Source: a phage. Taken from it: a DNA stretch of 64,000 bases. The DNA is taken from NCBI GenBank assembly GCA_012549035.1, contig GCA_012549035.1_4805.1; one strand, given 5' to 3'. The position numbers and the translations under genes were made by a program. The notes below the pieces were generated by a model. It saw nothing but the letters and a program-made list of their open reading frames with translations, did not search any database and was not told where the DNA came from. Position 1 is the stretch's first letter; every line of letters begins with the position of its first letter. Of this stretch, positions 3,494 to 54,066 are shown in pieces.

Positions 3494-3550
3494 AGACTCC
3501 TTAGATCTGATCAACAAATTATAATCTATAAGGAGTCTATAAGCAATATT

Positions 3551-48493: not shown

Positions 48494-49339
48494 GTGAATA
48501 TGGCCGAAGCAATCAAAGTATTATCTAAAGAAGAAAAACAAGCAGCCGCAGCAGAACGTCGTCGCGTGGCTGAAGAAAAACGCCTGGCTAAAAAGAAAGA
48601 AGCCGAAGAGAAACGCCAGAAGCGTGAGCAGGAAAAACAAGCCAAGCGTGAAGAAGCTGCGCTGAAACGCAAGCAGGCTGCTGATGAGAAGGCTCAGAAG
48701 CGTGCTGAAGAAGCAGCTAAGAAAGCTAAAGAGCGTGCAGAAAAGGCTGCTGCTAAGAAAGCAGAGCGTGAAGCCGCTAAAGCAGCAAAAGAAATCGAAA
48801 AGGCAAAGGCTAAAGAAGAAGCCAAGCGCCTGAAAGCTGAGCAGGCTGCGGCCAAGAAAGCAGAGCGTGATCAAGCCCGTGCTGCAGCGAAGGCCGAAAA
48901 AGAGAAGGCCAAAGAAGAAGCTAAAGCGAAACGCAAGGCAGAGCGTGAAGCTGCTAAGATTGCGGCGAAAGAAGCTGCAGAACAGCAGAAAGAACAGCGT
49001 AAGAAAGAAGCTGAAGAACGTCGCAAAGCCATCGCAGAACGTAAGGCTGCTAAAAAGGCAAACGGTCAGCGTCGTGCAAAAGCCACTCACTTCATCTACA
49101 CTGGCAATGGCCTGAGCCAGCCGCAAGAGCATTCCACTCGTGGACGCGTTCTGGCGGCGATCAAAGAAGGCGAAGTTGGCGTGGCGCAGTCTATCGATGA
49201 GCTGGGCGAAAAAGTTAAAGATCAACTGTTTGGCGCTTCCGTTCGCTCCTACCTGAGCAAGCTGGAAGAGATGGGCCACATCGAGTTTGTCGATGTTGAA
49301 TCCAACGACGATGCTGAAGACGGTGATCAAGCGGAATAA
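48494..49339 (+). CDS. Lys/Ala/Glu-rich low-complexity protein with globular C-terminal domain (histone H1 / TolA-like)
   Basis: About 190 aa of KAKE/AAKK repeats followed by non-repetitive 90-aa C-terminus. Confidence 0.55.
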   Translation: MNMAEAIKVLSKEEKQAAAAERRRVAEEKRLAKKKEAEEKRQKREQEKQAKREEAALKRKQAADEKAQKRAEEAAKKAKERAEKAAAKKAEREAAKAAKEIEKAKAKEEAKRLKAEQAAAKKAERDQARAAAKAEKEKAKEEAKAKRKAEREAAKIAAKEAAEQQKEQRKKEAEERRKAIAERKAAKKANGQRRAKATHFIYTGNGLSQPQEHSTRGRVLAAIKEGEVGVAQSIDELGEKVKDQLFGASVRSYLSKLEEMGHIEFVDVESNDDAEDGDQAE

Positions 49340-49473: not shown

Positions 49474-50469
49474 ATGAACATGAAACAACATGTAATGATT
49501 ATCGGCGGCGGTTTGGCAGGACTTATTACCGCGTGTCACTTCCCGAACTCTATTGTGTACGAAGCAGGGGAGCGAGCGCAGCAGCACAAGGCGTTGCTAC
49601 GCTTTCGCGGCGAAGAAGTAAGCCGTATTACCGGAATCCCTTTTAAGGCCGTGACAGTTGACAAGGCTGTGTATTTTCGCGGCAACTACTACCACGACCA
49701 TTGCCCAATCAACCTTGCCAATATGTATTCCATGAAGGTCACCAATCAATTCGGTAGCCGCTCAATTATGAAGCTTAAAACTGCAACGCGTTATATTGCG
49801 CCTGATGACTTTTATGATCAGCTTGTCGACAAACTGGGTGACCGCATATTCTTTAACACTCCTGTTGATACGCTTTGCGGCTATAGCGAGACGCCAATCA
49901 TCAACACGTCGCCGCTGCCAGTCATGATGAAGCTTGCTGGGATTGATCAAAAGATTGATTTCTCATTCGATAAGGCGAACATTCGTGTTTACCGCTTTAA
50001 GATTAAACGCAAGTGTGAACTGTATCAAACCATTTACTTCCCTGACTACTCCGTCAGAACTTACCGCGCATCAATCACTGGCGACACATTGATCATCGAA
50101 ACAATTCCTTTGGTTAGCGTAAGTGAAGCTGCAGTTGAAGCCGCTGGCGGCATTACTCGTTACCGTGACATTAAGTTGCGTGCAGAAGTTGACGAAGTGT
50201 TGACAGCCTTTGGCCTCTCATGGAGTGACATTACTCTTGAAGAAGTTGAAAAGGTCGACCAGAAATATGGCAAGATTGTCGACATTCCGAAGGACTTGCG
50301 ACACGCCCTACTCCTGCAGCTGACTATGGATTTGAACGTGTTTAGTGTCGGTCGATTTGCTACCTGGCGCAACATTTTGCTTGATGATGTCGCTCATGAC
50401 CTTGTTGAAGTTGAAAAACTCATCAAAGCAAATAACTATCAAAAATTTGCTTATATTGCTAATAAATAA
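49474..50469 (+). CDS. FAD/NAD(P)-binding oxidoreductase (putative)
   Basis: N-terminal Rossmann dinucleotide motif MIIGGGLAGL; 331 aa. Confidence 0.5.
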   Translation: MNMKQHVMIIGGGLAGLITACHFPNSIVYEAGERAQQHKALLRFRGEEVSRITGIPFKAVTVDKAVYFRGNYYHDHCPINLANMYSMKVTNQFGSRSIMKLKTATRYIAPDDFYDQLVDKLGDRIFFNTPVDTLCGYSETPIINTSPLPVMMKLAGIDQKIDFSFDKANIRVYRFKIKRKCELYQTIYFPDYSVRTYRASITGDTLIIETIPLVSVSEAAVEAAGGITRYRDIKLRAEVDEVLTAFGLSWSDITLEEVEKVDQKYGKIVDIPKDLRHALLLQLTMDLNVFSVGRFATWRNILLDDVAHDLVEVEKLIKANNYQKFAYIANK

Positions 50470-50534: not shown

Positions 50535-50981
50535 ATGAAACGAATCACTGGAATCGCGCTTGCCGCAACCGCTATTCTCGGCACCATGTATATGGAAGCT
50601 ACTGAAGCGGCTGTCCGCACTTCCGATTCAGTAGCTGTGTATGATTGCGAAGCGATGGACGGTAAAACCGCAGCAGCCACTGGCGCAACTATCACGGCTT
50701 ACATCGGCGTGAACGAGCAAGAAGGTCTGAATATTCAGATTCAAGGATTCACAGGCAAAGGTGCCAACCGCACTCCTTGGATGCAACGTTTCACTTTCGT
50801 TCAGCCTCGTTCAACTGGCGGCTTTATCAACCTGATTGGTGAAAATCGTTCTGGTGCAGAAATCTTTACATCAATGAGTTCTAATAATGAACCAAAGAAA
50901 AGTTTTCAGTTGCTTTATAACGCACAATTCGTTTATCATTGCACCTTCTCTGGTGATCAGCAACTAGTAAATTACCGTTAA
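50535..50981 (+). CDS. Secreted hypothetical protein (signal peptide)
   Basis: N-terminal MKRITGIALAATAILGTMYMEATEAA; 148 aa. Confidence 0.5.
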   Translation: MKRITGIALAATAILGTMYMEATEAAVRTSDSVAVYDCEAMDGKTAAATGATITAYIGVNEQEGLNIQIQGFTGKGANRTPWMQRFTFVQPRSTGGFINLIGENRSGAEIFTSMSSNNEPKKSFQLLYNAQFVYHCTFSGDQQLVNYR

Positions 50982-50994
50982 TAGGATAATTAAA

Positions 50995-51804
50995 ATGAAA
51001 GTTGAATTAATTCGATACACCCAAGATGCACTTGACCTTTTGCTGGAAACAAAGAACACGCGCATGACTGGTAAGCCTGTCTCTGAGATGACGGAATCAG
51101 AGAAGCAAGAGCATTGGCGCTACATGCTTGACACCATCAAGTCGCCTTTTGACTTTGTGGACTATATCTTTGACATCACCGCTGTATCAAAGAATATGAC
51201 TCATCAGATGGTACGCACACGCACAGGTGCATATCAAGAACGCACCAGCCGCGCTCAGGAATCTTCTGCATTTGATGCGATTCGTCCGAAGGCATTCGAG
51301 CACCCTTCTGACTGCAATGATGAAAATGCATTTGATGATGTGCACATAAGACATCACTCATTGGCAGAGAAATGGGATGATGCAATGGCGACTATCGATG
51401 CTTTGTATCAAGAACTTCGCGCGGCTGGCGCAGAGATTCAAGATGCACGTGCCGTGTTGCCTTCTAATATGCAAACGCATATCATGGCAAAGTTCAACTT
51501 GCGCACCCTGCAACAAATGGCTTCCAACCGCTTGTGTACGCGCACCCAAGGCGAGTATCAGGAAGTTTTCCGTGCGATGGTAGCGGAAGTCCTCAAGGTG
51601 CACCCGTGGGCTAATCCTTTACTACAGCCGCAATGCATCGGTATGGGCAAGTGCGCATTCCCTCGCCATGGCAAGGCCCATTGCCCTTGGTATCGTGATT
51701 GGATGGATACCACTGCACAGCAAGAAGAGTTGCGCATCCAGTTTTGGGATGCCGCGCCAATCACCAATAATCCAGTTGCTAAAGATGGAGTATCAAAAGG
51801 ATGA
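50995..51804 (+). CDS. ThyX-like (flavin-dependent thymidylate synthase family) protein, divergent
   Basis: ThyX-like pattern (MKVELI.., SPFDF, HQMVRTRTGAYQERTSR, ARAVLP) but canonical RHR-x7-S reads RTR-x7-TS; C-terminal CIGMGKCAFPRHGKAHCPW Cys cluster. Confidence 0.4.
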   Translation: MKVELIRYTQDALDLLLETKNTRMTGKPVSEMTESEKQEHWRYMLDTIKSPFDFVDYIFDITAVSKNMTHQMVRTRTGAYQERTSRAQESSAFDAIRPKAFEHPSDCNDENAFDDVHIRHHSLAEKWDDAMATIDALYQELRAAGAEIQDARAVLPSNMQTHIMAKFNLRTLQQMASNRLCTRTQGEYQEVFRAMVAEVLKVHPWANPLLQPQCIGMGKCAFPRHGKAHCPWYRDWMDTTAQQEELRIQFWDAAPITNNPVAKDGVSKG

Positions 51805-52673
51805 GCATTAAAAACAGCGAAATCTTAAACGTATTCGACCTTGACGGAACGCTGTTTGATGACCGTTGGCGCTTAGACCGCATCAAGGTGGCAGGTCCGT
51901 TGTCAGACTATGATGACTATCACAGCGGTATTGGTTATGATCAGTTCTATCCTCACATTGCATCAGCAGTAGAGTCGGCATCTCTTCGCGGTGAGGCGGT
52001 TGAATATTGGACTGCAAGGCCAGAAAAATACAGACAAGTGACTTTTGAACGTCTGGACAATGTTTTCCCTTTTGATGAATTTACAATCAAGATGAGAGAC
52101 TATGGCGACAAACGTCCATCAACTATTATGAAATCTGCATGGCTATCGCACGCTTTGCGGCACGGCGATTATCGAATCATCAATGTATTCGACGACCGAC
52201 AAGACGTACTCGCGCGGATGCAAGATGAAGCATTGTATTATAACTCCGTTGCTCAAAATAAAATCGCTTTTACATTTAATCTTTGCAAAGCAGGTGAAGT
52301 GGTGCAACAATTAGCAATTGATCCAAGCGCAACAGGGCAAGAAGAGACTAAGGCTGTGGAAGTTGAACAATCTCCGGCAACTGCCGCCGATATTCTTGAT
52401 GCGATGGCCGCGACCTTCCGTGAGCGCAATGCCGTTTATGGCGATAACGCTGTGATGGTAGGTCAGGTTATGCAGGTGTTGTTCCCTAATGGCGTAACTT
52501 TGAAGACACCGGAAGACTACCACATGTGGCATCTGTTCGAGCTTAAGATTGTCAAGCTTACACGCTTCGCAATCAGCGGCCTGAAGCACGAAGACTCAAT
52601 ACGCGACGATGGTGTTTATAGCGCCATGTGTGAACGTCTTGTAAACACCCATAATATTAATTTCAATAAATAG
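51801..52673 (+). CDS. HAD-superfamily phosphatase-like protein with unknown C-terminal domain
   Basis: HAD motif I FDLDGTL near N-terminus, later VFDDRQDV; 290 aa. Confidence 0.45.
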   Translation: MSIKNSEILNVFDLDGTLFDDRWRLDRIKVAGPLSDYDDYHSGIGYDQFYPHIASAVESASLRGEAVEYWTARPEKYRQVTFERLDNVFPFDEFTIKMRDYGDKRPSTIMKSAWLSHALRHGDYRIINVFDDRQDVLARMQDEALYYNSVAQNKIAFTFNLCKAGEVVQQLAIDPSATGQEETKAVEVEQSPATAADILDAMAATFRERNAVYGDNAVMVGQVMQVLFPNGVTLKTPEDYHMWHLFELKIVKLTRFAISGLKHEDSIRDDGVYSAMCERLVNTHNINFNK

Positions 52674-52738: not shown

Positions 52739-53422
52739 ATGAAAAAAGTAATTGTTGTAACAGGTTCCAATTCCGGTCTTGGTAAATCTATTTTTGACAC
52801 CCTTGGCGCTTACGGTCATAACGTGCTTGGCATCGATTCAGCATACGGATATGACGTCCGCGATGCTAAACAGATGAAAGAAATTTTAAGCCCATGTGAT
52901 GTTGAAGGCTTGATCAACTGTGCTGGTGTCAACTCTAACAATTGGTTTGAAGATGTAAACTATGAAGAGTTTAACCGCGTTATGCACACCAACGCATTCT
53001 CTTTCGTTAACACGACTCAGGCTGCGCTGAAAAGTCTTATCGACAACAAAGGCTTTGTGATCAACATCGTTTCCAACGCTGCGCATATTCCTATGACGTC
53101 CAGCTTGTGTTATAATGCATCCAAGGCCGCTGCGCTTATGATCAGCAAGCAGATGGCTCACGAACTTACGCCTAAGTACGGCATCACGGTATTCTCTATT
53201 AGTCCTAACAAGTTGCGCGGCACTGGCATGTCTAAACAGATTGAAGATGCCGTTTGCGCGACTCGCGGCTGGACTCCTGAATACGCTGCTGAATACCAGA
53301 AAAAGGCATTGATGAATGGATTGGAAACTGAGCCGCAAGTAATTGCTGACTTCATTCGCCATATCTTAATTACGGGCGCATGGCGCTTTATGTCTGGCAC
53401 TGATATTCCATTTGGTAAATAA
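52739..53422 (+). CDS. Short-chain dehydrogenase/reductase (SDR)
   Basis: TGSNSGLGKS cofactor motif, NCAG, catalytic YNASK. Confidence 0.7.
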   Translation: MKKVIVVTGSNSGLGKSIFDTLGAYGHNVLGIDSAYGYDVRDAKQMKEILSPCDVEGLINCAGVNSNNWFEDVNYEEFNRVMHTNAFSFVNTTQAALKSLIDNKGFVINIVSNAAHIPMTSSLCYNASKAAALMISKQMAHELTPKYGITVFSISPNKLRGTGMSKQIEDAVCATRGWTPEYAAEYQKKALMNGLETEPQVIADFIRHILITGAWRFMSGTDIPFGK

Positions 53423-53514: not shown

Positions 53515-54066
53515 ATGCCACATTTTAAAATTGAACAAATCGCCCTGTCAATTCCAGATGCTCAGCGCGCACAGGATTTCTTGGCTAAAATCGGCCTGAC
53601 AGAATGGTTCCATGATCATGTTGTTGCTACTGGTCGCGTATTTGAAGCTGATGACTTTAAAGGTCGTCGCGACGATTGCACCAATGAAGCTGACTTGCGC
53701 TTCAACTATCAGGCTGGCAACGGTACTGATGGTGGCGCTGGTAAGCCTCTTGAGCTTGAAATCCTTGACTACACAATGGGCTGCAACTGGATTAACGAAA
53801 ACATCGAATATATCGATGCGCATGACAATCAGGTCAGCCATCTTGGCATGCACGTAACTGCCGCTGAACTTGCTGAATGGCGTAAGTTCTTTAGCGAAGA
53901 AGGCATTCAGGTTGCACAGGAAGTTGTAACTGACTCTCATACCAACCCGAACATTGCTGGTCAACGTCGTTACAACTATGTGATCTTTGATACGCGTGAA
54001 ATCATCGGTGTTGATTTGAAGTTTATCGTGCGCTTGAATCAAGACGGTACTCCGTACACTGTATAA
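53515..54066 (+). CDS. Hypothetical protein (possible VOC/glyoxalase-like)
   Basis: 183-aa ORF; weak His/Glu pattern only; tentative. Confidence 0.4.
   Translation: MPHFKIEQIALSIPDAQRAQDFLAKIGLTEWFHDHVVATGRVFEADDFKGRRDDCTNEADLRFNYQAGNGTDGGAGKPLELEILDYTMGCNWINENIEYIDAHDNQVSHLGMHVTAAELAEWRKFFSEEGIQVAQEVVTDSHTNPNIAGQRRYNYVIFDTREIIGVDLKFIVRLNQDGTPYTV

Follow-up and report, generated by a model that had tools for sequence, protein, structure and literature searches.

Flavin-dependent thymidylate synthase (ThyX) is an antibiotic target and the textbook example of flavin-N5 methylene transfer, and the locus described here raises the question of what a ThyX-like enzyme does once its signature motif has been replaced. 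The gene lies on the plus strand at positions 50995 to 51804 of a 64,000-nucleotide stretch of phage DNA, referred to here as the window, which is the nearly complete genome of Escherichia phage ManiWeber_Bas99 (Wifcevirus). It encodes 269 amino acids from an ATG start with AGGA upstream, and its product is identical (100% amino acid identity) to Bas99_0050, publicly annotated as "thymidylate synthase." About 30 Escherichia and Shigella phage records share a 4.7-kb stretch around the gene at 93 to 96% identity, and the open reading frame is real. In the Bas99 annotation this is the sole thymidylate synthase-like gene of the genome; no second thymidylate synthase, dUTPase, or dCMP deaminase is listed there. 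The initial annotation, made from the DNA alone, described a ThyX-like protein with a substituted catalytic motif and a C-terminal cysteine cluster, features that it took to point to altered substrate or chemistry or to a metal site.

Several independent comparisons bear out the ThyX-like identity. Pfam Thy1 (PF02511) aligns to amino acids 5 to 205 over profile positions 2 to 191 of 191 (103.9 bits against a gathering cutoff of 24.8; E = 1e-29), and the protein matches the thymidylate synthase family PHROG 85 (5e-37). An AlphaFold2 model built with 69 homologs as input has a mean pLDDT of 89.5, and the top 50 matches listed in a Foldseek comparison of this model with the PDB are all ThyX (E of approximately 1e-10; TM scores of 0.58 to 0.76, normalized to the target), including the enzymes of Thermotoga maritima, Mycobacterium tuberculosis, Thermus, and PBCV-1. 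Therefore, the suggestion that there might be no ThyX fold here at all does not hold, given an end-to-end family match, a modeled fold, and ThyX-only structural matches among those listed. The relationship is a distant one: identity to the solved structures in the Foldseek comparison is only about 20%, by sequence, no solved ThyX matches better than E = 2.5e-4, and the NCBIfam thyX equivalog TIGR02170 scores 80.3 bits, below its cutoff of 87.9 bits. In place of the signature RHR(X)7S, the protein has RTR(X)7T followed by S. By sequence and predicted structure, then, this is a real but non-canonical enzyme of the flavin-dependent thymidylate synthase fold. With canonical ThyX proteins (T. maritima TM0449, M. 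tuberculosis ThyX, and PBCV-1 A674R), it has in common the fold, the Pfam family, the dUMP-binding Gln/Arg set, the ARxxLP and RxxxxxQxE elements, and a position as the only thymidylate synthase-like gene in a replication module; it differs from them in reading RTR rather than RHR, in carrying a Cys4 extension of approximately 65 residues, and in having a neighbor that resembles UDP-galactopyranose mutase (UGM).

The variant motif RTRTGAYQERTSR occupies amino acids 74 to 86 (positions 51214 to 51252, plus strand) in the alignment to T. maritima (Tm) ThyX and reads R74-T75-R76-T-G-A-Y-Q-E-R-T84-S85-R86, where the Tm enzyme has R78-H79-R80...S88-G89-R90. MAFFT and HMM alignments agree on this register, and the PDB alignment served to check the Tm numbering: R78-H79-R80 pairs with R74-T75-R76, and S88-G89-R90 pairs with T84-S85-R86. 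The replacement of the motif His by Thr, as first proposed, is confirmed, with Thr75 in the His79 column and RTR invariant in 120 of the 120 closest homologs. The accompanying proposal that the Ser had shifted by one position is not: T84 stands in the Ser88 column (Thr in 107, Ser in 11, and Ala in 2 of the 120 homologs), a conservative Ser-to-Thr change, and S85 falls in the Gly89 column. For both His79 and His53, we also rejected the possibility that the canonical residue is present at a shifted position, since the HMM and MAFFT alignments agree and the two columns are invariant Thr and Ile, respectively.

The substitutions extend well beyond the motif. Relative to the Tm enzyme, His53 is replaced by Ile48, His59 by Phe54, Arg74 by His70, Tyr91 by Ala87, Glu144 by Gln149, His178 by Arg183, and Trp181 by Gly186, each replacement being invariant or nearly so among the 120 homologs. 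A helix/loop of the active site, R179-L-C181-T-R183-T-Q-G-E-Y-Q (positions 51529 to 51561, plus strand, from the alignment), retains the equivalent of Tm R174, has Arg in place of Tm His178, and bears the first of the conserved cysteines discussed below. The nucleotide-binding set is kept: Gln71, Arg74, Arg76, Arg86, Arg152, and Arg179 correspond to Tm Q75, R78, R80, R90, R147, and R174, and the dUMP-binding members Q71, R74, R86, R152, and R179 are invariant in the 120 homologs and present in nearly all of 150 more distant representatives.

Because Tm His79 and His178 both, as we understand it, contact the FAD phosphates, the changes to Thr75 and Arg183 may be a compensatory pair. In canonical ThyX, His53, His79, and Tyr91 matter for catalysis, and His53 presumably stacks on the folate/NADPH site. 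The canonical residues of this side, His53 and Glu144, are absent, as is Tyr91; Ile48, Gln149, and Ala87 stand in their places. The PDB holds mutant structures for His53 (4gtf, H53A), Tyr91 (8rep, Y91F), Glu144 (4gte), Ser88 (3g4a), Arg90 (5ios), and Arg174 (4kat), all of them listed among the Foldseek entries. We read the pattern as that of a pocket with an intact nucleotide side and a remodeled co-substrate side. An altered substrate is unlikely, because every residue that contacts dUMP is retained in the alignment. An alteration of chemistry or of co-substrate handling, the other half of the original suggestion, is possible, the residues lost being the counterparts of Tm His53 and Tyr91.

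Beyond the Thy1 match lies a C-terminal extension of approximately 65 residues (amino acids 206 to 269; positions 51610 to 51801, plus strand) that has no counterpart in solved ThyX structures. It is confidently modeled (pLDDT of 94 to 96 over amino acids 200 to 250 of the AlphaFold2 model) and ends in a conserved tail, NNPVAKDGxS; a Pfam scan of the extension alone found no domain. The cysteine cluster first noted, CIGMGKCAFPRHGKAHCPW, is indeed present at amino acids 214 to 232 and contributes C214, C220, and C230 (positions 51634 to 51684), but that set was incomplete, having missed C181, a fourth ligand candidate located two residues past the conserved Arg179. C181, C214, C220, and C230 are invariant in 120 of 120 homologs at 53 to 100% identity; C107 varies among the same homologs and is not conserved. 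We scored cysteine co-occurrence among the best 150 of 5,479 database matches, taken as representatives at 50% identity. Where Cys is present at position 181, three further cysteines follow at approximately +33, +39, and +47 to +49 in 78 of 81 proteins, versus 0 of 58 proteins lacking Cys181, a contrast well outside chance expectation; in these 58, the residue there is Ser, Gly, Asn, or Thr, and the C-terminal helix is different and Cys-free. The spacing, C-X32-C-X5-C-X7-9-C and often then Pro, matches neither a classical zinc knuckle nor a ferredoxin motif. This all-or-none co-occurrence of the four cysteines points to one structural unit, most simply a metal site (Zn or Fe-S), consistent with the metal-site idea of the initial annotation. 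Such a putative site would tie the extension to the helix bearing Arg179 and Arg183.

These features are not confined to one protein; the ThyX homologs that share them, from phages and metagenomes, number in the hundreds. A search of 1.8 billion representatives returned 5,479 proteins at E < 1e-3. The 120 nearest homologs, all RTR, include proteins of Pbunavirus, Myosmarvirus, and Xanthomonas, Pantoea, and Burkholderia phages, and the subfamily traits are also found in Vibrio and Rhizobium phages. Conservation across the homologs of 53 to 100% identity is strongly purifying. The Pbunavirus homologs (PB1 and F8) are approximately 49% identical to the Bas99 protein and carry a 36-amino-acid insert between the third and fourth cysteines. 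Among the 150 representatives, most read RTR, RSR, RNR, or RQR, and most have Ile, Leu, or Val in the His53 column and Phe in the His59 column; the 10 that we looked up are all metagenomic, on contigs of 1 to 56 kb. With a public annotation and features found throughout its subfamily, the gene is no isolated curiosity.

We considered whether RTR and the cysteine cluster form one linked innovation, as the initial annotation implied, and rejected this: Cys4 occurs with RHR, RTR, RSR, RNR, or RQR, and RTR occurs also without Cys4. Because each is found without the other, the two are independent subfamily traits. Judged from these alignments, RTR and Cys4 mark a large, uncharacterized, mostly phage and metagenomic ThyX subfamily. 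Literature searches on ThyX paralogs, Fe-S, hypermodified DNA, and phage complementation turned up no study in which an RTR-type or Cys-type member was assayed. Mycobacteriophage L5 gp48, which we take to be an experimentally studied phage ThyX, is likewise encoded in a nucleotide metabolism cluster; we discarded it as a characterized RTR relative because it has the canonical ERHRHLSFSVVSQRY motif, with RHR, and GHESVFEH. Lacking the Cys module and the partner gene as well, it is uninformative about the RTR subfamily. A natural subfamily that lacks Tyr91 and both the signature and the folate-stacking His, and that has a probable metal center next to the active site, would test which residues are essential to ThyX and could reveal a different route of flavin reduction or loading.

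The gene has two neighbors of particular interest. The first, Bas99_0052, lies upstream at positions 49474 to 50469 (plus strand; 331 amino acids) and encodes a predicted FAD/NAD(P)-binding flavoprotein with a UGM/protoporphyrinogen oxidase-like fold. Its N terminus has the GxGxxG...E pattern of a dinucleotide fold; neither Pfam nor NCBIfam has a family for it, and its PHROG, 4828, is listed as "unknown." PDB sequence searches with the single sequence and with a profile were of no use for identity, matching only the GxGxxG motif. The AlphaFold2 model (pLDDT of 89.8) was closest to UGM in Foldseek (E = 2e-11), UGM accounting for 22 of the 23 top matches, a likeness only modestly above that to protoporphyrinogen and amine oxidases. 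Homologs of this partner in unrelated phage contigs from metagenomes lie directly upstream of ThyX-like genes or within about 1 kb of them; in the loci L006/L007, L008, and L009, it adjoins a ThyX-like gene with or without the Cys module, and homology was confirmed. A cultured-phage collection contains 362 records of the partner, by host 292 from Pseudomonas, 27 from Escherichia, 9 from Serratia, 6 from Xanthomonas, and 8 from Rhizobium, nearly equal to the host counts of the close ThyX-like clade. The partner and the ThyX-like gene co-occur almost perfectly.

The second neighbor (positions 51801 to 52673, plus strand; 290 amino acids) encodes a HAD_PNKP-type phosphatase (Pfam HAD_PNKP at amino acids 11 to 142) fused to a DUF6378-like domain, and its start overlaps the ThyX-like stop codon by 4 nucleotides (ATGA, positions 51801 to 51804). 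Its C-terminal region shares 40% identity with a DUF6378 protein that stands alone in L006, where HAD and DUF6378 are separate genes, and 37% identity with the C terminus of PB1 ORF57, where they are fused.

With about even confidence, we favor the explanation that the gene product is a flavin-dependent enzyme of the ThyX fold whose target is C5 of dUMP and which, though non-canonical, makes dTMP. Like ThyX, the protein would be a homotetramer with FAD, and a one-carbon unit would pass from N5 of the reduced flavin to C5 of dUMP, the most probable product being dTMP for phage DNA synthesis. The Cys4 module would bind a structural Zn or an Fe-S cluster, pinning the extension to the Arg179/Arg183 helix. 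The lost residues line the folate/NADPH side of the pocket, and for this reason the reductant, the carbon donor, or both are probably delivered differently than in canonical ThyX; the UGM-like flavoprotein next door may take part. Points for dTMP synthesis are the intact dUMP pocket, the status of sole thymidylate synthase-like gene, the wide subfamily, and the genome of Rhizobium phage RHph_TM2_3B, in which the homolog sits with a dUTPase and a ribonucleotide reductase (RNR), a classical dTMP supply context. Counted on the other side are the score below the TIGR02170 cutoff, the match of only about E = 1e-4 to solved ThyX, the loss of His53, His79, and Tyr91, and the thymidine hypermodification apparent in the lineage, which makes a product other than dTMP plausible.

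That hypermodification underlies the main competing explanation, which we consider appreciably less probable: a neofunctionalized ThyX would make a C5-substituted dUMP other than dTMP as the entry step to thymidine hypermodification in a TG context. Few Pseudomonas phages see as much therapeutic use as the pbunaviruses. According to a 2025 preprint, two thymidine derivatives in DNA of the Pbunavirus phages F8 and 14-1, with masses of 362 and 390 Da and described as a tetrose sugar-alcohol derivative and a cyclized aldopentose derivative, replace approximately one-quarter of T, in the TG context, the other three-quarters being ordinary T; the authors stress that these phages lack known hypermodification genes (PMC12191111). 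By mass arithmetic, the two values fit 5-hydroxymethyldeoxyuridine (5-hmdU) plus a tetritol or a pentose, respectively, minus H2O; they also equal dU plus a pentose minus H2O plus 2H and dU plus a hexose minus H2O. The product of such an enzyme could be 5-hydroxymethyl-dUMP, by water capture of the exocyclic-methylene intermediate, or a C5 adduct derived from a sugar and formed jointly with the UGM-like flavoprotein. In UGM, N5 of the reduced flavin attacks the anomeric carbon of the sugar, a nucleophilic-flavin logic common to UGM and ThyX, and PDB entry 5hhf is listed as a covalent FAD-galactopyranose complex.

Wifcevirus phages resist nearly all restriction systems tested, with no known mechanism, and our literature searches found no restriction digest data for them. 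The sequence of the window itself carries a TG-dependent signature. Strong avoidance affects 18 of the 46 testable palindromic hexamers that lack TG/CA (CGATCG, 0 observed versus 18 expected; CTCGAG, 0 versus 12; GGATCC, 0 versus 10), compared with 0 of 16 that contain TG/CA (Fisher P = 0.003), whereas unmodified T7 avoids both classes equally (8 of 16 with TG/CA versus 22 of 44 without). The tetramer GATC is depleted, with 116 occurrences against approximately 284 expected, and 114 of the 116 are TG-flanked: 54 are TGATCA, 60 have TG on one flank, and 2 have it on neither. Counted strand-wise, T precedes GATC in 72% of cases versus 34% for GAT[A/G/T] (P = 7e-29). This signature fits protection of T in TG, because only TG-free sites would then be purged by selection. 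The F8 genome shows the same direction, avoiding 1 of 15 hexamers with TG/CA versus 10 of 36 without. The distant Vibrio phage PVA7, which carries a module of the partner, a ThyX-like gene (RNR motif, no Cys), and the HAD gene, has a similar T-before-GATC bias (70% versus 47%; P = 2.5e-5). For F8 and PVA7, the palindrome test agrees with the window in direction and is not significant for either genome alone. Wifcevirus DNA appears to share the thymidine modification of Pbunavirus, the restriction resistance and the TG signatures being indirect evidence of it; the signature supports the presence of a Pbunavirus-like modification and does not say which genes make it. Flanking of GATC by TG, together with a lack of avoidance of TG/CA palindromes, offers a cheap predictor of phages that share the modification.

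If such a pathway is encoded here, the first genes to consider are plainly the ThyX-like gene, the UGM-like partner, and the HAD/DUF6378 gene. Apart from the ThyX-like protein, these genomes have no pyrimidine-C5 enzyme; the protein lacks the three catalytic residues of canonical ThyX listed above, its neighbor resembles an enzyme that forms flavin-N5-sugar adducts, and the HAD phosphatase with DUF6378, together with a MazG-like gene, suggests editing of the nucleotide pool. Against this reading, replacement of one-quarter of T specifically in TG, with the remainder ordinary, calls for a sequence-reading enzyme that works on DNA, not one that works on mononucleotides. The Bas99 annotation, together with Pfam scans of the neighbors and 10 further unknown open reading frames, yielded no homolog of a dNMP kinase, 5-HMUDK, glycosyltransferase, or aGPT-Pplase. 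Furthermore, the subfamily and the partner also occur in phages with a dUTPase/RNR context and in contigs without the TG signature, and the resemblance of the partner to UGM exceeds that to the oxidases by a small measure. Phages SPO1, phiW-14, M6, and ViI offer an analogy for this reading only: their ThyA-family dUMP hydroxymethylases, thymidylate synthase relatives of an unrelated fold (ThyA, not ThyX), feed 5-hmdU hypermodification (PMC8989533), and the phages also carry 5-HMUDK and downstream enzymes, none of which turned up in the Bas99 annotation or scans. The more specific proposition, that the UGM-like and RTR-type ThyX-like pair, with the HAD/DUF6378 gene, is the biosynthetic origin of the sugar-bearing TG thymidine hypermodification of Pbunavirus, apparently shared by Wifcevirus, is one we regard as doubtful. 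Under it, flavin-N5 iminium chemistry would not simply give dTMP; it would yield 5-hydroxymethyl-dUMP or would join a carbon from a sugar directly to C5 of dUMP. If true, DNA hypermodification would gain its first enzyme of the ThyX fold, and flavin chemistry a new route to C-C or C-O bonds.

A change of nucleotide specificity, such that UMP, dCMP, or CMP is methylated instead of dUMP, is improbable. There is a precedent in PolB, a neofunctionalized ThyX paralog that modifies UMP in polyoxin biosynthesis (PMC5954106) and shows the fold being used to modify C5 for purposes other than dTMP supply, and the divergence of the Bas99 protein, to below the equivalog cutoff, would be in keeping with one. 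PolB is only a weak match to this protein (4p5a; E = 0.31), is not phage-borne, and has no known Cys module or UGM-like partner. More directly, all Tm contacts to dUMP are kept, including Gln71 and Arg179, which read or polarize the uracil, and the modification in related phages sits on thymidine rather than cytidine. Least probable of all is that the protein is catalytically inactive and serves structure or regulation, perhaps within a nucleotide metabolism or replication complex. The loss of several residues understood to be important in canonical ThyX might suggest this, but more than 120 homologs and approximately 150 distant representatives show no variation in the arginines that bind substrate and FAD or in the pocket as a whole, as is typical of an active enzyme.

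Two further genes downstream were considered as conserved members of a shared pathway and set aside, neither being present in the stretch of PB1 examined. One encodes an SDR (FabG-like) reductase (positions 52739 to 53422, plus strand; Pfam adh_short, 9e-32) and the other a weakly glyoxalase/VOC-like protein of 183 amino acids (positions 53515 to 54066, plus strand; Pfam Glyoxalase_4, E = 0.004, below the cutoff). The PB1 slot equivalent to the VOC-like gene is occupied by ORF56, an RNase_T exonuclease.

Across the whole window, palindromic hexamers are avoided according to whether they contain the dinucleotide TG/CA. Of the 46 testable hexamers lacking TG/CA, 18 are strongly avoided, compared with none of the 16 that contain it (Fisher P = 0.003), and many of the avoided hexamers have no copies at all (e.g., CGATCG, CTCGAG, GGATCC, TCTAGA, and GCCGGC). 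Pbunavirus F8, whose DNA carries thymidine hypermodification in a TG context, shows the same trend; in the unmodified T7 control, TG/CA-containing and TG/CA-lacking hexamers are avoided equally. This sequence pattern is consistent with protection of the phage DNA in a TG context.

The tetranucleotide GATC is depleted in the 64-kb window (116 sites versus about 284 expected). At 114 of the 116 sites, a flanking T creates TGATC on one or both strands, with TGATCA at 54 of them; only the sites at positions 3504 and 56886 lack a TG flank. Counted strand by strand, a T comes before GATC 72% of the time versus 34% for GAT[AGT] (P = 7 × 10−29). The T-flank bias is likewise present in Vibrio phage PVA7, which carries the same gene module, and is absent from T7 and mycobacteriophage L5.

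Modification at TG alone would not, however, account for the reported insensitivity of Wifcevirus to the restriction-modification systems tested in the BASEL paper, because the window contains 15 EcoRI sites (GAATTC), which have no TG within them; a second protection mechanism or a wider modification context is therefore implied. Among other sites, the nonpalindromic BsaI/Eco31I site (GGTCTC/GAGACC) is missing from the window (0 versus 17.2 ± 4.2 expected from dinucleotide shuffles), as is TCTAGA (0 versus 9.3 ± 3.0), and AAGCTT (52 versus 18 to 31) and CAGCAG (66 versus 26) are overrepresented.

The neighbors of the ThyX-like gene described here lie on the plus strand. Upstream of its flavoprotein partner gene, positions 48494 to 49339 encode a 281-amino-acid protein (PHROG 4765, unknown) with a long, low-complexity, Lys/Glu/Ala-rich N-terminal half and a globular C terminus; PB1 ORF66 occupies the corresponding position. 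Between the partner and ThyX-like genes, a 148-amino-acid protein (50535 to 50981) with an N terminus resembling a signal peptide (MKRITGIALAATAILG...) had no family match, and the small ORFs in the corresponding PB1 slot are unrelated to it. Overlapping the ThyX stop codon, the downstream gene (51801 to 52673) encodes a HAD_PNKP-type phosphatase fused to a DUF6378-like domain; on metagenomic contig L006, these domains are two adjacent genes. Because the fusion lacks a P-loop kinase, its GenBank name, "polynucleotide kinase/phosphorylase," looks wrong. The interval from the ThyX module to the DNA polymerase includes genes for an SDR (FabG-like) reductase (52739 to 53422) and a weak glyoxalase/VOC-like protein (53515 to 54066). 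The PB1 stretch examined showed neither of them, and they are possibly lineage-specific tailoring enzymes or morons.

In the deposited PVA7 genome (PQ582223.1), the "phosphoheptose isomerase" adjoining thyX is merely a weak HAD_PNKP match. Many genes in this deposit are split, including the DNA polymerase (three pieces), ligase, pyrophosphatase, partner, and tail genes, a pattern suggesting that indel errors are frequent in the assembled sequence.
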